DNA of 11,151 bases. Source: a virus. Taxonomy: Duplodnaviria; Heunggongvirae; Uroviricota; Caudoviricetes. A program made the position numbers and the translations under genes. A model generated the notes under the pieces. It was not told the DNA's origin. It made no database searches and saw only the letters and a program-made list of their open reading frames with translations. The stretch lies in IMG/VR virus record IMGVR_UViG_2802429231_000004, positions 1 to 11,151 of that record. One strand, 5' to 3'. This document shows positions 1 through 11,151 of the stretch, in pieces; position 1 is the first letter of the stretch, and the number at the start of each line of letters is the position of its first letter.

Positions 1-28
1 TGATGAGCTGGCAGCCTGAGTTCACAGG

Positions 29-34
29 TAAAAT
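29..34 (+). promoter_or_regulatory. Candidate -10 hexamer (TAAAAT) of a PR'-like late promoter; the -35 is poor or lies outside the window
   Basis: TAAAAT at 29-34 lies about 195 nt upstream of the tR'-like terminator U-run, matching the ~194-nt lambda 6S RNA spacing. No convincing -35 in the window. Confidence 0.25.
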
Positions 35-204
35 ACTCTCCAGGAAAACCGGGGCGGTTCAGAAAGGAAGGTGCGACCACAATTAATAACAAAATCTTAA
101 AAATTGCACATGGCACTATTAGTTTTCTAAATATTGTGTATTTTTTGTATTGCAGGATGACCCTGTAACGAAGTTTGCGTAACAGCATTTTGCTCTACGA
201 GTTT

Positions 205-234
205 GCCAGCCTCCCCCAGTGGCTGGCTTTTTTA
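205..234 (+). terminator. Rho-independent terminator, tR'-like (end of 6S-type late leader RNA)
   Basis: 7-bp GC-rich stem GCCAGCC/GGCTGGC with 9-nt loop, followed by TTTTTTAT; the 3' tail resembles the lambda tR' region. Confidence 0.6.
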
Positions 235-256
235 TGTCTGTAGCGTCAAAGCAGCA

Positions 257-355
257 ATGTCGCTGGGGCGTCGTGCAATTGGCGTTGAGCTGGAGACTGA
301 ACGTTTTGAGCAGACGGTCAGGGAAGTTCAGGATTTAGTCAGTCAGAACGGATGA
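257..355 (+). pseudogene. Possible C-terminal remnant of a DNA methyltransferase gene (about 32 codons)
   Basis: Translation MSLGRRAIGVELETERFEQTVREVQDLVSQNG matches the C-terminal GRxxIGxE...F/Y...R motif of N6/N4 DNA methyltransferases. The frame is open upstream through the terminator but shows no SAM-binding motif, so only a fragment is present. Confidence 0.3.
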
Positions 356-395
356 TATTGCAGGATTAGTTACGTACCGTTATTATCCTGCGCCC

Positions 396-471
396 GGCCC
401 TTTAGCTCAGTGGTGAGAGCGAGCGACTCATAATCGCCAGGTCGCTGGTTCAAATCCAGCAAGGGCCACCA
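396..471 (+). tRNA. ileZ: tRNA-Ile2 (anticodon CAU, lysidine type), ileX-like; tRNA-Met not strictly excluded
   Basis: 76-nt cloverleaf: acceptor GGCCCTT/AAGGGCC, D-arm TAGCTCAGTGG, anticodon loop CTCATAA, T-loop TTCAAAT, encoded CCA. Closely resembles E. coli ileX as remembered. First of the ileZ-argN-argO-type cluster of Stx phages. Confidence 0.85.
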
Positions 472-480
472 TATCACATA

Positions 481-557
481 CCGCCATTAGCTCATCGGGA
501 TAGAGCGTCAGCCTTCGAAGCTGGCTGTGCGGGGTTCAAGTCCCCGATGGCGGTCCA
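481..557 (+). tRNA. argN: tRNA-Arg (anticodon UCG; decodes CGA/CGG)
   Basis: 77-nt cloverleaf: acceptor CCGCCAT/ATGGCGG, anticodon stem TCAGC/GCTGG with loop CTTCGAA (U33, anticodon TCG, A37), T-arm CGGGG-TTCAAGT-CCCCG, encoded CCA. Confidence 0.85.
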
Positions 558-570
558 TTATCAGCATCAT

Positions 571-647
571 GCGTTGTTAGCTCAGCCGGACAGAGCAATT
601 GCCTTCTAAGCAATCGGTCACTGGTTCGAATCCAGTACAACGCGCCA
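571..647 (+). tRNA. argO: tRNA-Arg (anticodon UCU; decodes AGA/AGG)
   Basis: 77-nt cloverleaf: acceptor GCGTTGT/ACAACGC, anticodon stem ATTGC/GCAAT with loop CTTCTAA (anticodon TCT), T-arm ACTGG-TTCGAAT-CCAGT, encoded CCA. Confidence 0.85.
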
Positions 648-933
648 CACCACACTTATCTGCCCTGACTCTCTTTTGCGGGCTTTTTATTACAGGAAAG
701 ACACCGGACAGTGAAATGTTAAATGCCTCACAATTCAGGTAGTCGACTGTTGCCTGACATGCTGAGCGTTTGTTAAAAAAATCCTGCATGATGAATCCCC
801 CTGGGCGGCGGGGCATAATGACAGATGTTTGGTTGCGTATTGTATAGGCAAGTTGCGGATTCTGTCTGGTCATTGCAGAATTCACCGGGAGGCACCCGGC
901 ATCATGCTGTATACAGAGATTAGGCATATATCC

Positions 934-959
934 AGGCTCCTCATCGCAGGAGCCTTTTT
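934..959 (+). terminator. Rho-independent terminator
   Basis: Stem AGGCTCC/GGAGCCT around loop TCATCGCA, followed by a T-run (955-959). Confidence 0.55.
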
Positions 960-965
960 ACATGC

Positions 966-990
966 AAAAAAAGCCCGAGTAGGTTCGGGC
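966..990 (-). terminator. Hairpin with upstream A-run; would terminate on the minus strand, forming a bidirectional pair with the 934-959 terminator
   Basis: AAAAAAA then GCCCGA-GTAGGT-TCGGGC; on the minus strand this reads as hairpin plus T7. Confidence 0.4.
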
Positions 991-1050
991 AACAGCATGA
1001 GATACTTGCATTGTCATTTTTATCGTGTGGATTTTAACCAGGGTTTATCA

Positions 1051-1076
1051 GGCTGCGCAACTGCGTGGCCTTTTTT
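1051..1076 (+). terminator. Rho-independent terminator
   Basis: GGCTGCGC-AACT-GCGTGGCC hairpin (8 bp including two G-U pairs) followed by TTTTTT. Confidence 0.5.
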
Positions 1077-1084
1077 CATTTCTT

Positions 1085-1129
1085 GGGCTGTAGTCCCCGT
1101 GTGTCATTCAGGCTTCCGGACTACAGCCC
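1085..1129. repeat. Perfect 12-bp inverted repeat (GGGCTGTAGTCC ... GGACTACAGCCC) with 21-nt spacer, about 45 nt upstream of the nanS-p-like start
   Basis: Arms at 1085-1096 and 1118-1129 are exact reverse complements. No U-run follows, so not a canonical intrinsic terminator. Confidence 0.8.
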
Positions 1130-1172
1130 ACTCCATATCTGATTTAATACACTATCCCGGCCGGGAGGAATA

Positions 1173-3026
1173 ATGACATTTAAACATTATGATGTTGTCA
1201 GGGCGGCGTCGCCGTCAGACCTTGCGGAAAAGCTGACACACAAACTGAAAGAGGGCTGGCAGCCGTTTGGTAGTCCGGTGGCCATAACCCCTTATACCCT
1301 GATGCAGGCGATTACAGCAGAAGGTGATGTGATGGTCAGTGGTGCAACTGAGCCGGATTGGTACTACGTCATCGTACTGGCCGGGCAGTCCAATGCCATG
1401 GCTTACGGTGAAGGGCTTCCGCTTCCGGATTCATACGATGCGCCCCATCCGCGCATTAAGCAACTGGCCCGTCGTAACACAGTGACTCCCGGTGGTGAAG
1501 TATGCGTATTTAACGACATCATTCCTGCTGACCATTGTCTGCATGATGTTCAGGATATGAGTACGATTAACCATCCCCGGGCTGACCTGAGCAAAGGGCA
1601 GTACGGCTGTGTCGGACAGGGCTTACATATTGCCAAAAAACTGCTTCCGTATATCCCTAATAATGCGGGGATCCTGCTGGTACCATGCTGTCGTGGTGGT
1701 TCGGCATTCACCCAGGGCACGGAGGGGACATTCAGCGAGTCCACGGGGGCCAGTCAGGATTCGGCTCGCTGGGGAGTGGGTAAGCCGTTATATCAGGATC
1801 TGCTTTTCCGCACGAAGGCAGCATTGCAGAAAAACCCGAAAAACGTTTTGCTGGCGATATGCTGGATGCAGGGGGAATTCGATATGACGAATGCCAGTTA
1901 CGCCCAGCAGCCAGCAGCATTTCTTGCAATGGTACAGCAGTTCCGTGCTGACCTTGCCGGGCTGGCGGCGCAGTGTCACGGTGGAAGTCCGGCATCAGTC
2001 CCCTGGATTTGTGGCGACACGACATACGCGTGGAAACAAGAACACGGTACGCAATATGAAGTGGTATATGGTGCATATAAAGGTAAAGAATCCCAGCAGA
2101 TTTATTTTGTTCCCTTTATGACCGATGGTAGCGGAGTTAATACACCGACAAACAACCCGTCAGAAGATCCTGATATTGTCGGGTCTGGTTATTACGGTTC
2201 GGCATCCCGAACGAACAAAAACTGGGTATCATCAAATCGCCCGACGCATTTCAGCTCATGGGCGCGTCGTGGCATTATTCCCGATCGTATGGCAACCGCT
2301 ATTCTGAACGCAGCCGGGCGCACCTCAGCCTTCATCAGTGGTAAGGCACCGGAAATCAAACCCTCGCCCGGCGGCGACACGCCATCGGGTCCGTCTACAG
2401 ATACGTCCGTTCGCACAATCTCCCTGCTGCCGACAGCCGGAGAGGCTGCTGCGCAGGGCTGGACCATTAAGGACGGCGGAATTCAGTTGTCGGGTGGTGT
2501 ATTTAAGATCGCCAAGCAGAGCAATAAAACCTGGTCCCTGACGCGCCCGGTGGATGACGCAGTCTCCCTGCTGACACGGGGTGGCAGACTGAGCTGTAAG
2601 TTTCGACTGTCAGGCGCACTGACCAACAATCAGTTCGGTCTGGGAATTTATCTGTATACCGATGTAGCGTTACCTGACGTCGTGGCGATGACGGGTACCG
2701 GTAACCCGTTCCTGATGTCGTTCTTCACCCAGACCACAGACGGCAAACTGAATCTGATGCATCACAAGAAAGCAGGAAACACAAAGTTGGGCGAGTTCGG
2801 GAATTACAGTAACGACTGGCAGACGCTGGAGCTGGTGTTCACCGCCGGCAGTGCCACGGTTACTCCGAAACTGAATGGAGTGGCTGGCCCGGCATTCCAG
2901 GTCATAAAAGACAGTCTGACACTGGGGCTGAATGCGCTGACGCTGACGGATATTACCAAAAATGCAGCGTATGGCGTTGAGATAGAAAGTCTGGTGCTGG
3001 AGATAAATGCACCGGCATCATCATAA
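1173..3026 (+). CDS. nanS: NanS-p-like prophage sialate 9-O-acetylesterase (N-terminal DUF1737, central SGNH/SASA esterase domain, C-terminal probable carbohydrate-binding region), 617 aa
   Basis: Long ORF with SD GGGAGG 5 nt upstream. N-terminus MTFKHYDVVRAASPSDLAEKL is DUF1737-like; GQSN esterase motif in VLAGQSNAMAYGEG. Sits in the same place as the large yjhS/nanS-p ORF downstream of stx in Stx2 phages. Confidence 0.85.
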   Translation: MTFKHYDVVRAASPSDLAEKLTHKLKEGWQPFGSPVAITPYTLMQAITAEGDVMVSGATEPDWYYVIVLAGQSNAMAYGEGLPLPDSYDAPHPRIKQLARRNTVTPGGEVCVFNDIIPADHCLHDVQDMSTINHPRADLSKGQYGCVGQGLHIAKKLLPYIPNNAGILLVPCCRGGSAFTQGTEGTFSESTGASQDSARWGVGKPLYQDLLFRTKAALQKNPKNVLLAICWMQGEFDMTNASYAQQPAAFLAMVQQFRADLAGLAAQCHGGSPASVPWICGDTTYAWKQEHGTQYEVVYGAYKGKESQQIYFVPFMTDGSGVNTPTNNPSEDPDIVGSGYYGSASRTNKNWVSSNRPTHFSSWARRGIIPDRMATAILNAAGRTSAFISGKAPEIKPSPGGDTPSGPSTDTSVRTISLLPTAGEAAAQGWTIKDGGIQLSGGVFKIAKQSNKTWSLTRPVDDAVSLLTRGGRLSCKFRLSGALTNNQFGLGIYLYTDVALPDVVAMTGTGNPFLMSFFTQTTDGKLNLMHHKKAGNTKLGEFGNYSNDWQTLELVFTAGSATVTPKLNGVAGPAFQVIKDSLTLGLNALTLTDITKNAAYGVEIESLVLEINAPASS

Positions 3027-3111
3027 AAAGTGAGCCAGTCAAATGGAAGGTATCGTTAAACTCACCGGTAGTGTCAGTGGGTCGTCTGAGATGCCTGCAT
3101 GAGTTATCAGA

Positions 3112-3141
3112 GCCATCAGTACTTAACTGGTGGCTTTTTTT
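3112..3141 (+). terminator. Strong rho-independent terminator between the esterase gene and the holin
   Basis: 8-bp stem GCCATCAG/CTGGTGGC (one G-U), 7-nt loop, followed by TTTTTTT. Confidence 0.65.
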
Positions 3142-3176
3142 ATTGTTGTCAGCTTCCGGATAACGGGAGACGGGGT

Positions 3177-3392
3177 ATGTACCAGATGGAAAAAATCACA
3201 ACAGGTGTGTCATACACCACGTCAGCGGTGGGAACGGGCTACTGGTTCCTGCAGTTGCTGGACAGGGTTTCCCCGTCTCAGTGGGCGGCAATAGGCGTGC
3301 TGGGAAGTCTGCTGTTTGGGCTGCTGACATATCTGACTAACCTGTATTTCAAAATCAGAGAGGACCGGCGTAAGGCCGCCCGGGGAGAGTGA
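3177..3392 (+). CDS. S: Class II holin, phage 21 S-type pinholin (71 aa) with dual-start motif (Met1 and Met4)
   Basis: Sequence from [71 protein letters not shown] is near-identical in its C-terminal half to S21 as remembered; two TMDs. SD GGGAGACGGGG precedes ATG 3177. The track ORF from 3099 is an upstream extension through the terminator. Confidence 0.9.
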
Positions 3393-3395
3393 ATA

Positions 3396-3953
3396 ATGAA
3401 CCATGAAGAAATGAATCAGCGCTTCAGTCGCCTGGAAAATGAAATTGCTGAACTGAATAAAAAACTGTCGACGCTGATGCATTCTGAAGATGAAAAAAAA
3501 CGCCGCGATGAGCAGTTTGCTGCGTTTGACGATTATTGTCGGAAAGTGATGAGCAAAAATCTCGCAGAGTGTTTCAGTATTCATAATGATAATTTCAGTG
3601 AGCTGGAATGGGAGTGTAACCGGCCATCCTTTGTTGTATCCGGTGATGCCGGGAAAATAACCATCTCAGAAAATGGGAAAGTAACACCTCCATCGCACCA
3701 GCACAGTGAGGAGCTCATTGAATTTGCCATTGATTACCTGAAGAACAATAAAAAGCAGGGGCTGATGAAGCGCGTTGGCCGTTGCATGGGATATCTTCAG
3801 GTAGCCGCTGAGATTGAAGCGCTGGCCAGTGGTGCTGATAAGGATGCAATTGTGCGGGAGGCTCTTCTTCGTGATTTTAATACTCCACCCTTTAAAAAAG
3901 TGCCGGCTTACTGGCTTCATCCGGGGCTGACTTATCTTAAAGTGCGTATTTAG
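3396..3953 (+). CDS. Uncharacterised 185-aa soluble protein encoded between holin and endolysin (N-terminal predicted coiled coil, no TM segment)
   Basis: ATG 3396 lies 3 nt after the holin stop, with SD GGGGAGAG inside the holin 3' end (translational coupling). No motif I can assign. Looks lower in GC than the flanking lysis genes. Confidence 0.7.
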   Translation: MNHEEMNQRFSRLENEIAELNKKLSTLMHSEDEKKRRDEQFAAFDDYCRKVMSKNLAECFSIHNDNFSELEWECNRPSFVVSGDAGKITISENGKVTPPSHQHSEELIEFAIDYLKNNKKQGLMKRVGRCMGYLQVAAEIEALASGADKDAIVREALLRDFNTPPFKKVPAYWLHPGLTYLKVRI

Positions 3954-3989
3954 TGGGCCAGGGACAGCGGCTGAATATTTAATATATCC

Positions 3990-4523
3990 ATGAACACCAA
4001 AATCAAATACGGCCTGTCGGCTGCCGTTCTGGCGCTGATTGCCGCTGGTGCGTCTGCGCCTGACATTCTCGACCAGTTTCTGGATGAAAAGGAAGGCAAT
4101 CACACCACGGCATACCGTGATGGTGCAGGTATCTGGACCATCTGCCGTGGTGCCATCATGGTGGATGGCAAACCTGTCGTTCCGGGCATGAAGTTGTCGA
4201 AGGAAAAATGCGACCAGGTTAACGCCATTGAGCGTGATAAAGCGCTGGCGTGGGTGGAGAAAAACATCAAAGTGCCATTGAGCGAACCCCAGAAAGCGGG
4301 GATCGCGTCATTCTGTCCGTACAACATTGGTCCCGGTAAGTGTTTCCCGTCGACGTTTTATAAACGAATTAATGCAGGTGATCGCAGGGGAGCGTGTGAG
4401 GCGATTCGCTGGTGGATTAAGGACGGTGGCAGAGACTGCCGTATTCGTTCAAACAACTGCTACGGTCAGGTATCCCGTCGTGACCAGGAGAGCGCGCTGG
4501 CGTGCTGGGGTATCGACAGATAA
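3990..4523 (+). CDS. R: SAR (signal-anchor-release) endolysin, T4-lysozyme-like muramidase (GH24), phage 21 R-type, 177 aa
   Basis: N-terminal Gly/Ala-rich weakly hydrophobic segment YGLSAAVLALIAAGASA (SAR domain); catalytic triad spacing E-x8-D-x5-T (EGNHTTAYRDGAGIWT). No obvious SD upstream of ATG 3990. Confidence 0.9.
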   Translation: MNTKIKYGLSAAVLALIAAGASAPDILDQFLDEKEGNHTTAYRDGAGIWTICRGAIMVDGKPVVPGMKLSKEKCDQVNAIERDKALAWVEKNIKVPLSEPQKAGIASFCPYNIGPGKCFPSTFYKRINAGDRRGACEAIRWWIKDGGRDCRIRSNNCYGQVSRRDQESALACWGIDR

Positions 4524-4612
4524 GCAGAATATTTTGCTGAAAAATAAAGCATGGCCACGCGGGCGGATAACATGAAATCCTGCGAACTGGCGAAACGTAA
4601 GTGAATAAAAGT

Positions 4613-4651
4613 AAAAACCCCGTTTGTTGGCACCAAGCGGGGTTTTGTGTT
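4613..4651 (+). terminator. Rho-independent terminator-like hairpin between endolysin and spanin genes
   Basis: AAAACCCCG ... CGGGGTTTT with an imperfect inner stem, followed by a U-rich tract (TTTTGTGTTT). Confidence 0.45.
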
Positions 4652-4682
4652 TCCTGACTCCGGAAAAGTCAAAGGAGAAAGT

Positions 4683-4820
4683 GTGTTTGATTTTAGCAAA
4701 CTGATTCGGGAGATTCGAGTGATGGCTGAAAAATTATCCACCTGGAAGTTCATTCTTATCTGGCTGGTGTTTGTGATTATGGCCTCCGGTTATTTCATCG
4801 GTCAGATACGCTGGTGGTGA
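4683..4820 (+). CDS. Small hypothetical single-pass membrane protein (45 aa from GTG 4683; 32 aa if from ATG 4722)
   Basis: SD AGGAG (4673-4677) 5 nt before GTG. Product [45 protein letters not shown] has one C-terminal hydrophobic helix. Stop TGA 4818-4820 abuts the Rz ATG at 4822. Too short for the supplied ORF track. Confidence 0.4.
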
Positions 4821-4821
4821 A

Positions 4822-5286
4822 ATGAACCGCGTACTGTGCGTGGTCATCATTGCCCTGCTGGTGGCCTGTGGTGCGCTTAGTCTGGGGCTGAATCATTACC
4901 GTGATAACGCCATTACCTACAAAGCCCAGCGCGACAAAAATGTCAGAGAACTGAAGCTGGCGAACGCGGCAATTACTGACATGCAGATGCGTCAGCGTGA
5001 TGTTGCTGCGCTCGATGCAAAATACACGAAGGAGTTAGCTGATGCGAAAGCTGAAAATGATGCTCTGCGTGATGATGTTGCCGCTGGTCGTCGTCGGTTG
5101 CACATCAAAGCAGTCTGTCAGTCAGTGCGTGAAGCCACCACCGCCTCCGGCGTGGATAATGCAGCCTCCCCCCGACTGGCAGACACCGCTGAACGGGATT
5201 ATTTCACCCTCAGAGCGCGACTGATAATAATGCAAAAACAACTTGAAGGGGCACAGCTATACATTCGAGAGCAATGCCTCAGATAA
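4822..5286 (+). CDS. Rz: Rz i-spanin (inner-membrane spanin subunit), lambda type
   Basis: Near-identical to lambda Rz as remembered ([74 protein letters not shown]); N-terminal TMD. Confidence 0.95.
5042..5224 (+). CDS. Rz1: Rz1 o-spanin lipoprotein, embedded in the +1 frame of Rz
   Basis: [20 protein letters not shown] lipobox signal followed by proline-rich [15 protein letters not shown], matching lambda Rz1; fully nested in Rz. Confidence 0.9.
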
Positions 5287-5593
5287 AAACCGGCCAAGGA
5301 TAATCCGCTGAAGATTCGCCGGTGGCTAAAGTGTGCCAAGAGTTCAATTTACGCAATTACTCCTGTCGATGCTATGCACCGTCTTTGTGAAGTCAATGGA
5401 TACCTGATTTATTTCTGTGCGCTGTATCGTCGCTGTACTCTTGCATTAATTATGACTGTAGCCTGACGGGGAACTCCTTCTGCACAAGTGTGGGGGAATA
5501 ATCAAAAACGATGCACACCGGGGTTACCGGGTACACATATTTCATCATGCCAGCGAGTCCGGTTCTGGCACGGAAGAAACCGGACGTTATGAT

Positions 5594-6004
5594 TTAGTGC
5601 GGAAATATTTGTGTAGTGTTCTGAATGTTCTCAGTAAAGAGTAATGAATTATCAAAGGTATAGTAATACCTTTTGTTTTCGTGGATATTTGTAATCCATC
5701 TGAAAACCCCTGCTGTAGCAAGATTTTTCCTGTATTCGTAAAATGATAACTCTCCTGATTTGAATCCTTTTAAGGTGGCTTCTATAAGGCATTTATTTTT
5801 TGAAAATCTTACATTTACAACCTTACCCTGTCCTTTTATTAAAACCGTATTATCGTTTTCAAGAACAAGATGAATATTCTCTGTGGCTAAATAGTAAATG
5901 TAATGTGAGACATTGTGACGTTTTAGTTCAGAATAAAACCAGTGATAGTTTAAATTATTTCGCACTTTATCGAATATTTGTTTAAAAATGGCAACCTGAG
6001 CCAT
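5594..6004 (-). CDS. Hypothetical protein, possibly YbcV/YdfO-like (DUF1398) prophage family, 136 aa from the second Met; very AT-rich
   Basis: Minus-strand ORF; likely start is the ATG at 6004 with SD GAAGG 7 nt upstream (the track start at 6019 adds MEGTT). Size and C-terminal [18 protein letters not shown] resemble my recollection of DUF1398 proteins; a homologous region exists in the lambda right arm. Family assignment is from memory only. Confidence 0.6.
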
Positions 6005-6061
6005 TGTAGTACCTTCCATGTGATATGAGGGGGCGTAGTCTGCACGATTATCTAAATTGCT

Positions 6062-6295
6062 TCAATCTGGTCTGACCTGTTTTCTGAGCAATTCAGTAAT
6101 GTCACTCTTTTCTTTGTTTGCTTCAGGCGAAACTCTTTTTACTGAGCACAGTCTCCGGCGGCAGGCTTCAATGACCCAGGCTGAGAAATTCCCGGACCCT
6201 TTTTGAACAAGAGCGATGTTAATTTGTTCAATCATTTGGTTAGGAAAGCGGATGTTGCGGGTTGTTGTTCTGCGGGTTCTGTTCTTCGTTGACAT
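6062..6295 (-). CDS. Small ribbon-helix-helix (Arc/MetJ/CopG-like) DNA-binding protein, possibly YlcI/YnfO-like (DUF3950), 77 aa
   Basis: Basic N-terminus MSTKNRTRRTTTRNIRFPNQMIEQINIALVQKGSGNFSAWVIEACRRRL fits beta-strand/helix A/helix B of RHH regulators. Lies 42 nt upstream of, and co-oriented with, the 136-aa ORF. Confidence 0.65.
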   Translation of the reverse strand: MSTKNRTRRTTTRNIRFPNQMIEQINIALVQKGSGNFSAWVIEACRRRLCSVKRVSPEANKEKSDITELLRKQVRPD

Positions 6296-6494
6296 GAGGT
6301 TGCCCCGTATTCAGTGTCGCTGATTTGTATTGTCTGAAGTTGTTTTTACGTTAAGTTGATGCAGATCAATTAATACGATACCTGCGTCATAATTAATTAT
6401 TTGACGTGGTTTGATGGCGTAGATGCACGTTGTGACATGTAGATGATAATTATTATCATTTTGCGGGTCCTTTCCGGCGATCCGACAGGTTACG

Positions 6495-6506
6495 GGGCGG
6501 CGACCT
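6495..6506 (+). other. cos: cosN cohesive-end sequence (GGGCGGCGACCT) of a lambda-type cos site; cosQ-like sequence upstream and cosB downstream towards the small-terminase gene
   Basis: Exact lambda 12-nt cohesive end, preceded by GATCCGACAGGTTACG (lambda right-end sequence) and followed by CGCG..TTTTC.CTATTTATGA (lambda left-end-like). Confidence 0.85.
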
Positions 6507-6543
6507 CGCGCGTTTTCACTATTTATGAGATTTTTTGAGGGGG

Positions 6544-6555
6544 TGGTTGTTGTTT
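6544..6555 (+). repeat. cosB-region repeat TGGTTGTTGTTT (copy 1); candidate small-terminase binding element
   Basis: Exact 12-mer repeated at 6681-6692, with an inverted 9-mer ACAACAACC at 6604-6612, all between cosN and the small-terminase start. Confidence 0.4.
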
Positions 6556-6680
6556 AATTGTTTGGTATATCTAATTGATAAGTAAGGTGAAAATAAAATA
6601 AATACAACAACCTTACGATGTGTTTTGATGTCGTCAATGCAAAAAATGTCAATGATATCAAATGGTTTTGCAAAAACACA

Positions 6681-6692
6681 TGGTTGTTGTTT
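6681..6692 (+). repeat. cosB-region repeat TGGTTGTTGTTT (copy 2)
   Basis: Identical to the 6544-6555 12-mer; lies 31 nt upstream of the predicted small-terminase start. Confidence 0.4.
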
Positions 6693-6722
6693 CGCTTTTT
6701 ATCGATGACTTATGGAGAGGAG

Positions 6723-7229
6723 ATGGCCTTTTTATTGAATAAAAGTGATATGGCCTCCTCCATCGGTATCTCTGTTCAGGCATTTGATAAATGGGGCGTT
6801 CCTCCTGTTGAACGTCGGGGGAGGGAAGTTTTATATGACGTTAAAACTGTACTGGAGATAGATCGCGAGCGGCGACAACACAATCAGAGAACACCTGATG
6901 ACGGGGGAGAACTGGAGGAAAGGCTGCTTCGGGCCAGAGCTGAACTGACAGAAGAACAGGCTGTAGCTCAAAAACTTAAAAATCAGGTAACCGAAGGTAA
7001 GCTCATCGATTCAGACTTCTGCGTTTTCGCCCTCAGCAAACTGGCGATGGCATTGTCCAGTACGCTTGATTCCATTCCGTTATCCATGCAGCGACAGTTC
7101 CCGGATTTAACGCCACGTCATATTGACCATCTGAAAACCCTTATTGCAAAGGGGGCAAATCAGTGTGCGCGGGCAGGGGATAAATTACCGGATTTACTCG
7201 ATGAATATATCAGAGCAACAACTGAATAA
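6723..7229 (+). CDS. nu1: Terminase small subunit (Nu1 family), 168 aa
   Basis: C-terminal half aligns with lambda Nu1 as remembered (FCVFALSKLAMALSSTLDSIPLSMQRQFPDL..HIDHLK vs FCTFVLSRIAGEIASILDGLPLSVQRRFPEL..HVDFLK). Start chosen at ATG 6723 with SD GGAGAGGAG; the track ORF from 6618 is an extension across cosB. Overlaps the large-subunit start. Confidence 0.85.
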   Translation: MAFLLNKSDMASSIGISVQAFDKWGVPPVERRGREVLYDVKTVLEIDRERRQHNQRTPDDGGELEERLLRARAELTEEQAVAQKLKNQVTEGKLIDSDFCVFALSKLAMALSSTLDSIPLSMQRQFPDLTPRHIDHLKTLIAKGANQCARAGDKLPDLLDEYIRATTE

Positions 7230-9129
7230 TATGATGGCTGCCGTTTCGGTTGCGCTGCAGCCTCTGGTCAGGGTTGTACCAATGACGGCAGTTGAATGGG
7301 CTGATCAAAATTATTATCTGCCTAAAGAATCTTCATATGGTGAGGGAGAATGGAAAACGCTGCCATTCCAGATCGCCATTATGAACTGTATGGGTAACGA
7401 CCAGGTTCGCACGGTTAACCTGATTAAATCTGCCCGTGTTGGCTATACAAAGATGTTGCTGGGGGTGGTCGGGTATTTTATTGAGCATAAATCCCGAAAC
7501 AGTCTGCTTTTTCAGCCCACGGATTCTGCCGCTGAAGATTTTATGAAGTCTCACGTGGAGGCGACGATTCGGAACGTGCCATGCCTGAAAGACCTTTCCC
7601 CATGGCTGGGGCGTAAACATCGTGACAATACTCTCACGCTGAAACGCTTTTCATCGGGCGTCGGTTTCTGGTGCCTGGGCGGCGCTGCCGCCAAAAACTA
7701 CCGTGAAAAATCCGTGGACGTGGTCTGCTATGACGAACTTTCCTCGTTCGAGCCGGATGTCGAAAAAGAGGGCTCGCCAACCCTGCTGGGGGATAAGCGT
7801 ATTGAGGGGTCGGTGTGGCCAAAATCCATTCGCGGCTCGACGCCTAAAATCAAAGGCACCTGCCAGATCGAAAAAGCCGCTAACGAGTCGGCGCATTTTA
7901 TGCGTTTTTATGTGCCCTGCCCGCACTGTGGGGAGGAGCAGTATCTGAAATTTGGCGATGAGTCCACGCCTTTTGGGCTTAAATGGGAGAAGGACAGCCC
8001 TGAAAGTGTTTTCTACCTCTGTGAACATCATGGCTGCGTGATCCATCAGTCTGAACTGGACCAGAGCAACGGGCGGTGGATCTGTGAAAACACGGGCATG
8101 TGGACCCGTGACGGTCTGACGTTTTTCAGCGCCCGGGGTGATGAAATTCCGCCGCCGCGCTCCATCACGTTCCATATCTGGACGGCGTACAGTCCGTTCA
8201 CCACCTGGGTACAGATTGTCTATGACTGGCTGGATGCACTGAAAGATCCCAACGGCCTGAAAACCTTTGTGAACACCACGCTGGGCGAGACCTGGGAAGA
8301 GGCCGTGGGCGAAAAACTCGATCACCAGGTACTGATGGATAAGGTGGTGCGTTACACGGCGGCGGTGCCTGCCCGGGTGGTTTATCTGACGGCGGGCATT
8401 GACTCGCAGCGAAACCGTTTTGAGATGTATGTCTGGGGATGGGCTCCGGGAGAGGAAGCCTTTCTGGTGGATAAAATCATCATTATGGGGCGTCCTGATG
8501 AGGAAGAGACGCTGTTACGTGTGGATGCGGCGATCAACAAAAAATACCGCCATGCGGATGGCACCGAAATGACTATTTCCCGTGTCTGCTGGGACACCGG
8601 GGGGATCGATGGTGAAATTGTTTATCAGAGATCAAAAAAACACGGTGTTTTCCGGGTGCTGCCGGTAAAAGGCGCATCTGTCTATGGCAAGCCGGTGATC
8701 ACCATGCCAAAAACCCGCAATCAGCGGGGCGTGTATCTGTGTGAAGTGGGAACGGACACCGCAAAAGAAATTCTCTATGCCCGTATGAAAGCCGATCCCT
8801 CGCCTGCGGATGAAGCCACGTCGTATGCCATCCGTTTTCCTGATGATCCGGAGATTTTTTCGCAGACAGAGGCGCAGCAACTGGTGGCGGAAGAGCTGGT
8901 GGAGAAGTGGGAAAAAGGAAAGATGCGTCTGCTGTGGGATAACAAAAAGCGGCGTAACGAAGCGCTGGACTGCCTGGTGTATGCCTACGCGGCATTACGT
9001 GTGTCCGTGCAACGCTGGCAGCTTGATCTGGCTGTACTGGCAAAATCCCGGGAAGAAGAGACGACCCGGCCAACCCTGAAAGAACTGGCAGCGAAGCTGT
9101 CCGGAGGAGTGAATGGTTACAGTCGCTGA
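7201..9129 (+). CDS. A: Terminase large subunit (gpA family), 642 aa
   Basis: MNISEQQ start and strong collinear similarity to lambda gpA (TAVEWADQNYYLPKES, VGYTKMLLGV, CPHCGEEQYLKFGD, TTLGETWEE, ALDCLVYAYAALR). The track ORF from 7144 is an upstream extension. Confidence 0.95.
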   Translation: MNISEQQLNNMMAAVSVALQPLVRVVPMTAVEWADQNYYLPKESSYGEGEWKTLPFQIAIMNCMGNDQVRTVNLIKSARVGYTKMLLGVVGYFIEHKSRNSLLFQPTDSAAEDFMKSHVEATIRNVPCLKDLSPWLGRKHRDNTLTLKRFSSGVGFWCLGGAAAKNYREKSVDVVCYDELSSFEPDVEKEGSPTLLGDKRIEGSVWPKSIRGSTPKIKGTCQIEKAANESAHFMRFYVPCPHCGEEQYLKFGDESTPFGLKWEKDSPESVFYLCEHHGCVIHQSELDQSNGRWICENTGMWTRDGLTFFSARGDEIPPPRSITFHIWTAYSPFTTWVQIVYDWLDALKDPNGLKTFVNTTLGETWEEAVGEKLDHQVLMDKVVRYTAAVPARVVYLTAGIDSQRNRFEMYVWGWAPGEEAFLVDKIIIMGRPDEEETLLRVDAAINKKYRHADGTEMTISRVCWDTGGIDGEIVYQRSKKHGVFRVLPVKGASVYGKPVITMPKTRNQRGVYLCEVGTDTAKEILYARMKADPSPADEATSYAIRFPDDPEIFSQTEAQQLVAEELVEKWEKGKMRLLWDNKKRRNEALDCLVYAYAALRVSVQRWQLDLAVLAKSREEETTRPTLKELAAKLSGGVNGYSR

Positions 9130-9319
9130 ACTGCAGGCGCTGCGTCAGGCGCGCCTTGATTTATTAACCGGTAAACGGGTGGTGTCTGTCCAGAAAGATG
9201 GTCGCAGAATTGAATATACGGCGGCTTCTCTGGATGAGCTTAACCGGGCGATCAATGATGCGGAGTCGGTACTGGGGACAACCCGGCGTCGCCGTCGTCC
9301 GCTGGGAGTGAGGTTATGA
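9113..9319 (+). CDS. W: Head-tail joining protein gpW, 68 aa
   Basis: Similar to lambda gpW (LTGKRVVSVQKDGRRIEYTAASL vs [23 protein letters not shown]); SD GGAGGAG upstream; start overlaps the terminase end. Confidence 0.9.
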   Translation: MVTVAELQALRQARLDLLTGKRVVSVQKDGRRIEYTAASLDELNRAINDAESVLGTTRRRRRPLGVRL

Positions 9320-10908
9320 AACGAACGCCTGTCCTGATTGATGTGAACGGCGTTCCGCTTCGTGAGAGTCTCAGCTACAACGGGGGCGGTGCAGGATTTG
9401 GCGGGCAAATGGCGGAGTGGTTGCCACCGGCGCAGAGTGCCGATGCAGCCCTGCTGCCTGCGTTGCGTCTGGGGAATGCCCGGGCAGATGATCTGGTGCG
9501 CAATAACGGAATAGCGGCCAATGCGGTGGCACTGCATAAGGATCACATTGTCGGGCATATGTTTCTTATCAGCTACCGTCCGAACTGGCGCTGGCTGGGG
9601 ATGCGGGAGACCGCAGCAAAAAGCTTTGTCGATGAGGTGGAGGCGGCCTGGCCGGAATACGCCGAAGGGATGTCTGGCGAGATCGACGTGGAAGGAAAAC
9701 GCACGTTCACGGAATTTATCCGTGAAGGTGTGGGCGTTCATGCGTTTAACGGCGAAATCTTTGTGCAGCCGGTCTGGGATACGGAAACCACGCAGTTATT
9801 CCGTACGCGTTTTAAAGCCGTGAGTCCGAAACGGGTGGACACGCCAGGACACGGTATGGGGAACCGTTTTCTGCGGGCCGGGGTGGAGGTCGATCGATAT
9901 GGCCGTGCCGTTGCGTACCATATCTGTGAGGATGATTTTCCTCGCTCCGGGAGTGGACGATGGGAACGGATCCCGCGTGAACTTCCCACCGGGCGTCCGG
10001 CCATGCTGCATATTTTCGAGCCGGTGGAGGACGGGCAGACCCGTGGGGCCAACCAGTTTTACAGCGTCATGGAACGGCTGAAGATGCTCGATTCCCTGCA
10101 GGCAACACAGCTTCAGTCGGCCATTGTGAAAGCCATGTATGCAGCGACGATTGAAAGTGACCTTGATACCGAAAAGGCCTTTGAATATATCGCCGGTGCG
10201 CCGCAGGGGCAGAAGGATAATCCGCTTATTAATATTCTGGAGAAGTTCTCCACCTGGTATGACACGAATAACGTGACGCTGGGTGGTGTCAAAATTCCGC
10301 ACCTTTTCCCCGGGGATGATCTGAAACTACAGACTGCGCAGGATTCAGACAATGGATTTTCGGCGCTTGAACAGGCGCTGCTGCGGTATATCGCCGCCGG
10401 TCTTGGCGTTTCCTACGAACAGTTGTCCCGTGATTACTCGAAGGTCAGTTATTCAAGTGCCAGGGCCTCTGCCAATGAGTCGTGGCGCTATTTTATGGGG
10501 CGGCGAAAATTTATTGCGGCCCGGCTGGCCACGCAGATGTTTTCCTGCTGGCTGGAAGAGGCACTTCTTCGGGGGATTATCCGTCCGCCACGGGCGCGTT
10601 TTGATTTTTATCAGGCGCGATCAGCCTGGTCACGGGCAGAGTGGATTGGTGCCGGAAGAATGGCCATTGACGGGCTCAAGGAGGTTCAGGAATCGGTGAT
10701 GCGCATTGAGGCCGGACTGAGCACGTATGAGAAAGAGCTGGCGCTGATGGGCGAGGATTATCAGGACATTTTCCGCCAGCAGGTCAGGGAATCTGCAGAG
10801 CGGCAAAAAGCCGGACTCTCACGTCCGGTGTGGATAGCGCAGGCGTATCAGCAGCAGATAGCGGAGAGTCGCAGGCCGGAAGAGGAGACAACACCCCGTG
10901 AGACGTAA
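9316..10908 (+). CDS. B: Portal protein gpB, 530 aa
   Basis: Collinear similarity to lambda gpB (GNARADDLVRNNG, FEPVEDGQTRGAN, LQSAIVKAMYAATIES, LLRYIAAGLGVSYEQLSR, GRMAIDGLKEVQE); ATGA overlap with the W stop. Confidence 0.95.
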   Translation: MKRTPVLIDVNGVPLRESLSYNGGGAGFGGQMAEWLPPAQSADAALLPALRLGNARADDLVRNNGIAANAVALHKDHIVGHMFLISYRPNWRWLGMRETAAKSFVDEVEAAWPEYAEGMSGEIDVEGKRTFTEFIREGVGVHAFNGEIFVQPVWDTETTQLFRTRFKAVSPKRVDTPGHGMGNRFLRAGVEVDRYGRAVAYHICEDDFPRSGSGRWERIPRELPTGRPAMLHIFEPVEDGQTRGANQFYSVMERLKMLDSLQATQLQSAIVKAMYAATIESDLDTEKAFEYIAGAPQGQKDNPLINILEKFSTWYDTNNVTLGGVKIPHLFPGDDLKLQTAQDSDNGFSALEQALLRYIAAGLGVSYEQLSRDYSKVSYSSARASANESWRYFMGRRKFIAARLATQMFSCWLEEALLRGIIRPPRARFDFYQARSAWSRAEWIGAGRMAIDGLKEVQESVMRIEAGLSTYEKELALMGEDYQDIFRQQVRESAERQKAGLSRPVWIAQAYQQQIAESRRPEEETTPRET

Positions 10909-11095
10909 TCTTTCACACATTATTGCCGCAGCATTCAATGAACCGCTGCTTCTGGAGCCCGCCTATGCGCGGGTTTTCTTTTGCGCGCTCGGGCGCGAGA
11001 TGGGGGCAGCAAGTCTTTCGGTACCACAGCAGCAGGTACAGCTTGATGCTCCCGGAATGCTGGCTGAAACGGACGAGTACATGGCCGGAGGGTAA
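10898..11095 (+). pseudogene. C: gpC-like (prohead protease/scaffold) N-terminal ORF ending after 65 codons; truncated, frameshifted or replaced
   Basis: GTG start overlaps the portal stop as in lambda. The first ~30 residues (HIIAAAFNEPLLLEPAYARVFFCAL) match the lambda gpC N-terminus; the sequence then diverges and hits TAA at 11093-11095. The window ends 56 nt later. Confidence 0.45.
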
Positions 11096-11151
11096 GCGGC
11101 TCGTCAGAACCGTATTGATATTTACTGAGAGCTCAGATCAACTTTCCAGGG

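Follow-up and report, generated by a model that had tools for sequence, protein, structure and literature searches.

Type I toxin–antitoxin (TA) pairs such as symE/SymR, hok/sok, and hokW-sokW, the last of which belongs to the prophage Sp5 and assists phage release (PMC8621323), are among the closest described counterparts of a 45-codon gene that lies, together with its 5′ leader, at positions 4606–4820 of a viral DNA sequence of 11,151 nt (IMG/VR record IMGVR_UViG_2802429231_000004, positions 1 to 11,151). This whole stretch, which is the late region of a lambdoid, Stx-phage-like Escherichia coli prophage, is referred to as the window. The features that the locus shares with type I pairs are a hydrophobic membrane peptide of fewer than 60 amino acids (aa) encoded in a prophage, an RNA structure that would occlude the translation-initiation region, a putative short cis-antisense RNA which covers the Shine–Dalgarno (SD) sequence and the start codon and ends at a rho-independent terminator, and the occurrence of tandem or multiple copies per genome (loci L107, L009, and L015). 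In contrast to these pairs, the peptide is unrelated in sequence to Hok, Ldr, TisB, Ibs, ShoB, and Fst, and its transmembrane domain (TMD) is C-terminal. The gene also differs in having a terminator directly upstream and no promoter of its own that could be found, so that it would rely on read-through from the late genes, while its antisense RNA and its toxicity are predicted ones.

The leader can also be compared with the left end of IS200. Beuzon and colleagues are reported to have described in 1999 that this end carries a terminator, which blocks impinging transcription, and a stem, which occludes the ribosome-binding site of the transposase. The likeness, which is an analogy, lies in the two hairpins placed just 5′ of the start codon, the first for insulation and the second for SD sequestration. 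The locus differs from IS200 in encoding a 45-aa membrane peptide instead of a transposase, and no inverted ends or transposon features were seen. The lambdoid morons bor, lom, and stx are likewise additional DNA placed among conserved late genes, where their mosaic borders are sharp and their presence or absence is polymorphic. However, a classical moron is ordered as promoter, gene, and terminator, while here the gene follows the terminator, its stop codon directly adjoins the next gene, and a sense promoter was not found. Moron sites in late regions also harbor the convergent anti-sRNAs AgvB and AsxR, which are short antisense-oriented small RNA (sRNA) genes with conserved terminators (PMC4104026). 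The locus is unlike these sRNAs in that Rfam searches of the whole window at E up to 1 gave no match within 4524–4820, and those of four related loci gave none that was relevant.

The last group of counterparts consists of lysis accessory proteins, such as Mu gp25, P2 LysA, and the antiholins S107 and T4 RI, which are also small, membrane-tethered, encoded beside endolysin and spanin genes, and composed of a cytoplasmic segment and one TMD. None of them is homologous to the peptide studied here, and most members of its family are encoded outside lysis cassettes. The Mu releasin gp25 is a DUF2730 protein with an N-terminal TMD (PMC9239132), whereas our peptide has a C-terminal TMD and no DUF2730 match. 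It also differs from holins and antiholins in that no holin family of Pfam or PHROG was matched, the charged segment is N-terminal, and the linkage to lysis genes is not constant.

We give an even chance to the reading that positions 4606–4820, instead of holding two independent features, form one portable accessory cassette of ∼215 bp. In this reading the cassette encodes a toxin-like membrane peptide with a tail anchor, is insulated and gated at translation, and is probably under antisense control. In 5′ to 3′ order it would comprise an A-tract, hairpin, and U-tract acting as a symmetric bidirectional terminator, a stem containing the SD sequence, the 45-codon gene, and the stop context UGGUGGUGA. 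Its features are as follows.

4606–4613, no strand assigned: A-rich 5′ flank (AAAGTAAAAA region), left border of the cassette; the covariance-model match begins at 4606
4614–4646, no strand assigned: G+C-rich hairpin resembling a bidirectional intrinsic terminator, from the terminator scan; 13 pairs (6 G-C), 7-nt loop
4605–4684, minus strand: predicted cis-antisense RNA of ∼80 nt, which spans the start codon, SD sequence, and SD stem and ends at the hairpin and UUUUUACUUUUAUU
4650–4678, plus strand: SD-occluding stem–loop, UUUCCU/GACU (4650–4659) with AGUC/AGGAGA (4667–4678), from the minimum free energy fold of the window
4683–4820, plus strand: 45-codon gene with GTG start, predicted tail-anchored inner-membrane peptide; PHROG 6632, identical to WP_000459345.1
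4690–4698, minus strand: extended −10-like motif TGCTAAAAT (plus-strand ATTTTAGCA, invariant, codons 3–6), candidate antisense promoter
4708–4724, plus strand: internal GGGAG (4708–4712), 9 nt 5′ of the Met14 ATG (4722–4724); GGGAG is conserved and Met14 invariant in the Enterobacterales members
4812–4824, plus strand: junction TGG TGG TGA A ATG, read directly, in which Trp-Trp-stop reads as SD-like GGUGGUGA

The 45-codon gene and its leader

The open reading frame (ORF) begins with GTG at 4683, 5 nt after the SD sequence AGGAG (4673–4677), and ends with TGA at 4818–4820. A single A separates it from the Rz start codon at 4822, hence the stop does abut Rz, as had been noted in a first-pass annotation of this DNA. 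The peptide covers the PHROG 6632 profile fully (residues 1–45 on positions 1–45 of 45, E 1.2e-29). A protein of identical sequence is present on at least 1000 contigs. Carriers of the 45-aa protein include Stx1-, Stx2a-, and Stx2c-converting phages and 871 of 5426 complete E. coli genomes, which is about one in six. Relatives were found in E. albertii, E. fergusonii, Salmonella, Citrobacter, Trabulsiella, Edwardsiella, Yersinia, Izhakiella, Sodalis, Brenneria, Pantoea, and Symbiopectobacterium, and profile searches added members from Haemophilus, Canicola, Burkholderiaceae, Mycetohabitans, and Azoarcus, as well as from isolated Salmonella, Pseudomonas, and Actinobacillus phages. The expectation that such an ORF escapes annotation was borne out for most GenBank phage records, which leave it unannotated, while in some RefSeq genomes (about 5 of the 25 best matches) PGAP names WP_000459345.1 as a hypothetical protein.

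Selection on the ORF was analyzed with 12 divergent homologs. All of them have 45 codons without a single indel, both alternative frames are closed in each, and the changes fall mostly at third codon positions (pS 0.64, pN 0.20, dN/dS ∼0.16). Decayed copies are few (P0025, P0027, and P0017). The first-pass annotation had named a comparison of synonymous and nonsynonymous change as a check of its prediction, and frame-disrupting indels or missing amino acid conservation as observations that would speak against it; no such indel was seen in the 12 homologs, and conservation at the amino acid level is present. Judged by its pattern of change, the ORF is a genuine gene under purifying selection. 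The first 13 residues are kept at the protein level even in relatives with 30%–40% identity, and therefore the start at 4683 is favored over the ATG at 4722 alone. The Met14 ATG is a possible second start, which would give a 32-aa product, and this short form alone was called by some annotators (P0022 and P0023). Among 24 family members the start codon is GTG in 13, TTG in four, and ATG in seven, thus 17 of the 24 use a non-ATG start.

The C-terminal hydrophobic helix, which had been recognized before, was found again by two approaches. The top 19-residue Kyte–Doolittle window covers residues 24–42 with a value of 2.13, and the AlphaFold2 model (pLDDT 79) shows a helix at residues 4–17, a break, and a second helix at residues 20–44. 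Residues 2–19 are amphipathic. Five basic residues are located N-terminal of the membrane segment, while only IRWW follows it, which by the positive-inside rule suggests a tail-anchored peptide of N-in topology, composed of a cytoplasmic amphipathic helix, one TMD (24–42), and a C-terminal RWW. The amphipathic helix, a W-K/R-F motif, and the TMD are kept in the relatives with 30%–40% identity, which have different C-termini. No Pfam, NCBIfam, or PADLOC family was matched by the peptide at E up to 0.1.

The terminator-like hairpin reported by the first-pass annotation is present at 4614–4646, where it has the layout of an intrinsic terminator, that is, a G+C-rich stem and a U-run. Its 3′ tail, GTGTTTCCTG, is U-rich (UUUUGUGUUU), and on the minus strand the stem is followed by UUUUUACUUUUAUU. 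The folding energies are −18.9 kcal/mol for the plus strand and −15.6 kcal/mol for the minus strand. The A-rich flank, with eight A among 10 nt, would serve as the U-tract in any termination of minus-strand transcripts by the hairpin. In the pattern scan alone the hairpin was no rarer than expected by chance (2 sites versus 2.3 expected), and it is judged real because it is conserved with compensatory changes across genera, not because of its frequency in the scan. RNAalifold applied to a MAFFT alignment detected compensatory changes in 7 of the 13 hairpin pairs, with the stem variants AAAACCCCG/CGGGGTTTT, AAAGCCCCG/CGGGGCTTT, and AAGCTCCGA/TCGGAGCTT, and recovered only the terminator.

The second stem of the leader is visible only in folds of individual sequences and in the alignment guided by a covariance model. 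In the predicted fold of the window the SD sequence is buried in this stem, where its partner is the U-rich tail of the terminator, and similar stems are formed in most homologs (CCUUG/CAAGG, CGUUA/UAACG, CCUUCUG/CAGAAGG, and UUUCC/GGAAA). The covariance model of the two-stem leader was found 5′ of family members in at least 18 loci, including phages SEN34 and Rac-SA53 and a Pseudomonas phage. Family members with such a leader occur in Enterobacterales, Pasteurellaceae, and Burkholderiaceae as well as in Pseudomonas phages. In the alignment guided by this model, which is fitted to the structure and whose pair counts therefore lean toward it, 93% of the cells were paired, 12 pairs had a change in both partners, namely eight of the 13 terminator pairs and four of the 10 pairs of the SD stem, and the second helix was 91.7% paired. 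None of 500 shuffled controls reached the observed values, and partners that were slid out of register were paired in at most 62%. On these data the SD sequence is most likely masked by a conserved second stem. Hence, what had been described as a strong SD has the sequence and the spacing of one, but is predicted to be sequestered. The masked SD together with the mostly non-ATG starts suggests that translation is restrained.

In every locus that was read, the hairpin is located 27–42 nt 5′ of the start codon and is bordered by A-rich sequence on its 5′ side and by U-rich sequence on its 3′ side, and the homology among distant loci extends from ∼10 nt 5′ of the stem to the stop codon. This conservation argues that the hairpin is the ORF's own 5′ part, not that of R, and the earlier view of it as a plain terminator between R and the ORF does not hold, since it accompanies the ORF everywhere. 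Identities of the hairpin as attC, as a REP element, or as an IS end were rejected by inspection for their core motifs, none of which were seen in the hairpin or its flanks. An anti-terminator pairing of codons 5–7 with the ascending arm of the terminator was also dropped, as it holds in the window but fails in Salmonella.

The candidate antisense RNA

Synonymous change among the 12 homologs is low in codons 2–13 (pS 0.33 versus 0.69–0.79 further on). A minus-strand TANNNT located at +4 to +13 of the ORF is present in all 28 cassettes compared and in 9.5% of background ORFs, while the form with the TG extension (TGnTANNNT) is present in 22 of the 28 versus 0.4%, where the background is 232 long ORFs from the same loci. 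The motif is retained where the encoded amino acids differ (Azoarcus and L117), it is still found at +7 to +12 in Pasteurellaceae, though the protein there has three extra N-terminal residues, and it occurs in three unrelated ORF types that have the leader. Because it persists in all these cases, its position is tied to the leader and not to the protein.

The data suggest, with about equal chances for and against, that this conserved minus-strand −10 drives a cis-antisense RNA of ∼80 nt, whose transcription would begin near the start codon of the ORF, cross the anti-SD region, and end at the hairpin. The predicted RNA folds into two stem–loops (−23.2 kcal/mol, z = −3.4). Such an RNA would explain why the hairpin and an otherwise unneeded A-rich flank always accompany the ORF. 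Another minus-strand promoter-like site, which the scan placed at 4805–4776, was discarded as not conserved in the homologs.

Genomic contexts of the cassette

The gene order in the window is SASA esterase, P21-type holin, a 185-aa protein, R, the interval with the cassette, Rz/Rz1, DUF1398, a YnfO-like gene, and terminase. The segment 4480–4860 is 100% identical in the O55:H7 strain DEC5D, where the annotated gene order agrees with that of the window. The immediate neighbors of the cassette are as follows.

3990–4523, plus strand: endolysin R, 177 aa, with a Gly/Ala-rich hydrophobic N-terminus; PF00959 (Phage_lysozyme), E 2.4e-24, and phrog_7 endolysin
4524–4605, plus strand: post-R spacer outside the cassette, common to phage 933W (R-ant spacer)
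4822–5286, plus strand: i-spanin Rz; PF03245, E 1.4e-52
5042–5224, plus strand: o-spanin Rz1, embedded in Rz; PF06085, E 5.4e-20

The distance from the end of R (4523) to the start of Rz (4822) is 298 bp, close to the 300 bp estimated before. As had also been proposed, the interval contains extra DNA relative to a direct R–Rz junction, such as that of DLP12 in K-12, and the cassette is missing from both DLP12 and Qin of this strain. A weak covariance-model match in Qin (L003, 8353–8435) proved to be only a generic terminator. Collinearity of the window with 933W extends to ∼4612 and resumes at the Rz ATG. Between these points the cassette takes the place of ant and another small ORF, and its borders coincide with the mosaic breakpoints. 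Sakai Sp15 has the ant-type junction and not the cassette.

The position between endolysin and i-spanin genes is occupied by the cassette in the window, in Salmonella (L005), Citrobacter (L017), Edwardsiella (L018), and E. fergusonii (L009), and in phage vB_EcoS-569R3. These lysis regions differ in their holins, in their endolysins (PF00959, GH19, GH108-like, or phrog_873), and in Rz (PF03245 or DUF2514). Elsewhere, the cassette fills the gap between baseplate V-like and W-like genes in Yersinia, Pantoea, Serratia, and phages SEN34 and Rac-SA53; follows tail fibre or tail K genes or the gene of a large LPD38 protein; or is placed between T7 gp14-like and SLT-domain internal virion genes. In Haemophilus influenzae it is found between portal and ClpP-capsid genes, in Canicola 5′ of a scaffold gene, and in Burkholderiaceae amid ParE/RelB/HicB modules upstream of terminase. 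The gene that comes after the cassette is on the opposite strand in several cases. Lysis cassettes make up about six of at least 22 independent contexts, and about three quarters of the contexts are elsewhere. Taken from these comparisons of loci, leader and ORF are a unit that moves jointly among late-operon positions of unrelated prophages. The pattern argues for a promiscuous accessory cassette of late and accessory regions, with which a general membrane role at the end of the cycle is compatible. Such varied contexts argue against a role as a dedicated partner of spanins or holins, and the lysis-specific modulation suggested by the first-pass annotation is weakened by them, as it is by the variety of lysis partners. 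The insertion into operons may be eased by the Trp-Trp-stop context UGGUGGUGA, which is SD-like and followed by a downstream ATG after 1–8 nt in many loci. This context seems suited to pass ribosomes to the next gene, so that the cassette would fit into operons without orphaning the gene downstream.

The same leader was also found to precede unrelated small ORFs with a transmembrane (TM) segment (L009, 3678–3757; L113, 1410–1490; L107, 3123–3204 and 4650–4730). In L113 the ORF has 60 aa and lies between tail genes, and downstream of the cassette in this locus, beside a Bro-N gene, sRNA-Xcc1 (RF02221) is matched above the gathering score (3630–3718, minus strand). In L107, from Burkholderiaceae, two leader-bearing ORFs end with AIRWW. 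The region 2029–4884 of this locus contains three cassettes of leader plus small ORF, each 3′ of a noncoding repeat of ∼300 nt (79%–98% identity) that has no Rfam match, and the cassettes are interleaved with ParE/TraY-like and YafQ/RelB type II TA pairs. In E. fergusonii (L009, 3678–3908) a second cassette, with a leader score of 51 bits and an unrelated TM ORF ending with VKWW, is placed directly upstream of the family member.

Other small ORFs occur at R–Rz junctions. In vB_EcoS-569R3 (L015, 612–1180) the gap is filled by four small ORFs with a single TMD each, in the order family member, ECs_5741-like ORF, 38-aa ORF, and AIRWW-ending ORF. The last of them reads AIRWW, then TGATATGA, then the Rz start, and the first is mis-annotated as a TPR_REGION domain-containing protein. 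At R–ant–Rz junctions (933W, L013, 5421–5570; Sakai Sp15, L116) a different ORF of 48–49 aa with a single TMD separates ant from Rz; the Sakai annotation includes it (ECs_5741), that of 933W does not. This ORF lacks the cassette-type leader, its homology to the family is not evident, and it was not accepted as a homolog. Neither the KWW-ending ORF of L009 nor the 49-aa ORF of 933W matched a Pfam, NCBIfam, or PADLOC family.

Further observations were made in the window upstream of R. The ORF of 185 aa between holin and endolysin (3396–3953, plus strand) matches PHROG 1085 (E 8e-113) and no Pfam, NCBIfam, or PADLOC family, and is another unexplained insert of the lysis cassette. The holin ORF (3099–3392, plus strand) has 97 aa when called mechanically versus 71 aa in RefSeq (216 nt, from 3177); its P21-holin domain begins at residue 31 of the 97-aa ORF, hence alternative starts are possible. 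The positions 396–644 and 757–965 (plus strand) and 966–1025 (minus strand) are occupied by three tRNA genes and by matches to the sRNAs STnc100 (175.6 bits) and AgvB. The match to AgvB (anti-GcvB) is the one at 966–1025, convergent to STnc100, and scores 56.2 versus a gathering score of 56. This arrangement is typical of the PR′-proximal moron site of prophages of the enterohemorrhagic E. coli (EHEC) type.

Expression and function of the peptide

No plus-strand promoter-like site was found by the promoter scan in 4524–4683, between R and the ORF, so the mRNA of the peptide would come from upstream only, by read-through of the terminator. Late transcription of lambdoid phages is Q-modified and antiterminated, and in a lambdoid prophage the read-through would thus be Q-antiterminated late transcription. 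Translation would further need opening of the SD stem, and a constitutive cis-antisense RNA could set a threshold, as in the type I pair SymR/symE. The product is most likely a potent membrane-perturbing peptide that is confined to the end of the lytic cycle, when late transcription is high. It may contribute to killing of the cell or to its lysis, for which hokW-sokW of Sp5 is a functional precedent, but is not read as a dedicated partner of spanins or holins. A toxin-like membrane peptide is favored because the three proposed layers of repression resemble the control of deleterious products, such as type I toxins and the IS200 transposase. The small toxin that the first-pass annotation had listed as an alternative is thus plausible in view of the heavily repressed architecture, while neither a match to a known toxin family nor a promoter of its own was found. 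As a whole, that interpretation is partly supported: the small membrane-protein gene is genuine, whereas a role specific to lysis found no support.

Several observations weigh against the proposed toxin-like cassette. No toxin promoter of its own was found, in contrast to classical type I TA systems, and no homology of the peptide to known toxin families (Hok/Gef, Ldr, TisB, Ibs, ShoB, Fst, and others) or to known holin or defence families was found. Literature searches by accession, by locus tag, and on lysis, type I TA, and EHEC sRNA topics returned nothing on the 45-aa ORF. The proposed antisense promoter has a poor −35 element, with a 3/6 match, and was not listed by the consensus promoter scan of the window. 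AU-rich sequence is common just 3′ of start codons, and part of the synonymous constraint in codons 2–13 could be translational. In SEN34 and Rac-SA53, which have no known antitermination, an efficient cassette terminator among the baseplate genes would be polar, and termination on the plus strand may therefore be weak. The lean toward structure of the model-guided pair counts belongs here as well.

An alternative, which we consider unlikely, is that the peptide is a lysis-specific regulator, tethered to the membrane and co-expressed with the spanins, which tunes holin triggering, the spanins, or, in the manner of a releasin, the release of an endolysin of the signal-anchor-release (SAR) type. 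It would fit the Enterobacteriaceae, where the cassette recurs at the endolysin/i-spanin gap of at least five lysis cassettes that differ from one another, and in each of them a single nucleotide separates its stop from the Rz ATG. Small TM ORFs are also found at this junction in other phages (four stacked in vB_EcoS-569R3 and another one in 933W and Sakai). The endolysin of the window has a SAR-like N-terminus with Lys residues, and the Met14 internal start resembles the dual starts of holins and antiholins. In Mu, the releasin gp25, a membrane-tethered cytoplasmic protein, is needed for SAR endolysin release (PMC9239132). However, some three quarters of the independent contexts lie outside lysis cassettes, in regions of baseplate, head, tail, internal virion, or accessory genes, the neighboring endolysin and Rz families vary, and one of the endolysins is a cytoplasmic GH108-like enzyme. 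The peptide itself does not match holin families or DUF2730, its C-terminal TMD is the reverse of the releasin arrangement, and it has no charged C-terminal tail, unlike holins. Equally improbable, in our estimate, is a classical moron active in the lysogen, with low-level peptide made from an unrecognized promoter and serving, for example, to exclude superinfecting phages or to modify the envelope. Exclusion factors are commonly small membrane proteins, and the presence/absence polymorphism at typical moron sites, with carriage by 871 of 5426 complete E. coli genomes, would fit this explanation, as would the Burkholderiaceae copies among type II TA and accessory genes, where the upstream 300-nt repeats could hold a promoter. 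On the other hand, the scan gave no promoter-like site on the plus strand from R to the ORF, only ∼35 nt separate the terminator, at which the conserved unit starts, from the start codon, and no PADLOC match was obtained. The terminator, the SD occlusion, and the non-ATG starts of 17 of 24 members point to repression instead of steady expression.

Two simpler explanations fare worse against the conservation data. The SD-like UGGUGGUGA and the proximity of the next ATG, 1–8 nt away in many loci, could mean that the ORF is only a cis-acting adaptor, which re-loads ribosomes after the terminator and couples them to the next gene, while the peptide is functionless. This is very improbable, since purifying selection acts on the whole peptide (dN/dS 0.16), the helix, the W-K/R-F motif, and the TMD are kept in distant relatives, and the opposite-strand genes after several cassettes leave nothing to couple. 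A chance ORF with an incidental terminator, in recombination junk between R and Rz, could be argued from a hairpin pattern no commoner than in shuffled sequence and from the few decayed copies, but a protein family that crosses orders, the codon-position pattern of change, and the compensatory changes in the stem already refute it, and we give it almost no weight.

Returning to the toxin-like cassette, a broader proposal is made more tentatively, as possible rather than probable. The window cassette would then belong to a widespread, undescribed "terminator-first" class of type-I-toxin-like systems in Proteobacterial prophages, composed of a shared leader and interchangeable tail-anchored peptides, many of which end with (A/Q)IRWW. 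The leader would combine a bidirectional terminator, an SD-occluding stem, and a cis-antisense promoter at +4 to +13 of the ORF, and the peptide, lacking a promoter of its own, would be made only when late transcription of the phage runs past the terminator and the antisense RNA is titrated by it. The architecture of the cassette and the shared leader appear to be undescribed, while the gene itself is already catalogued as a hypothetical protein. For the 45-aa protein no name, Pfam family, or literature was found despite its wide carriage, and the view of one regulated unit turns this anonymous hypothetical protein into a concrete system, for which an antisense RNA of ∼80 nt, a translational gate, and a toxic membrane peptide are predicted. 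The same view accounts for a recurrent "intergenic terminator" within late operons, and makes the leader a marker for other unannotated small membrane genes in prophages. If true, the "terminator-first" class would provide phages with an RNA-set threshold, beyond which a membrane-active effector is released as the lytic cycle ends. If the peptide alters the timing of lysis or killing, this would bear on the release of Shiga toxin from Stx phages, a process linked to lysis and to transcription of the late genes.

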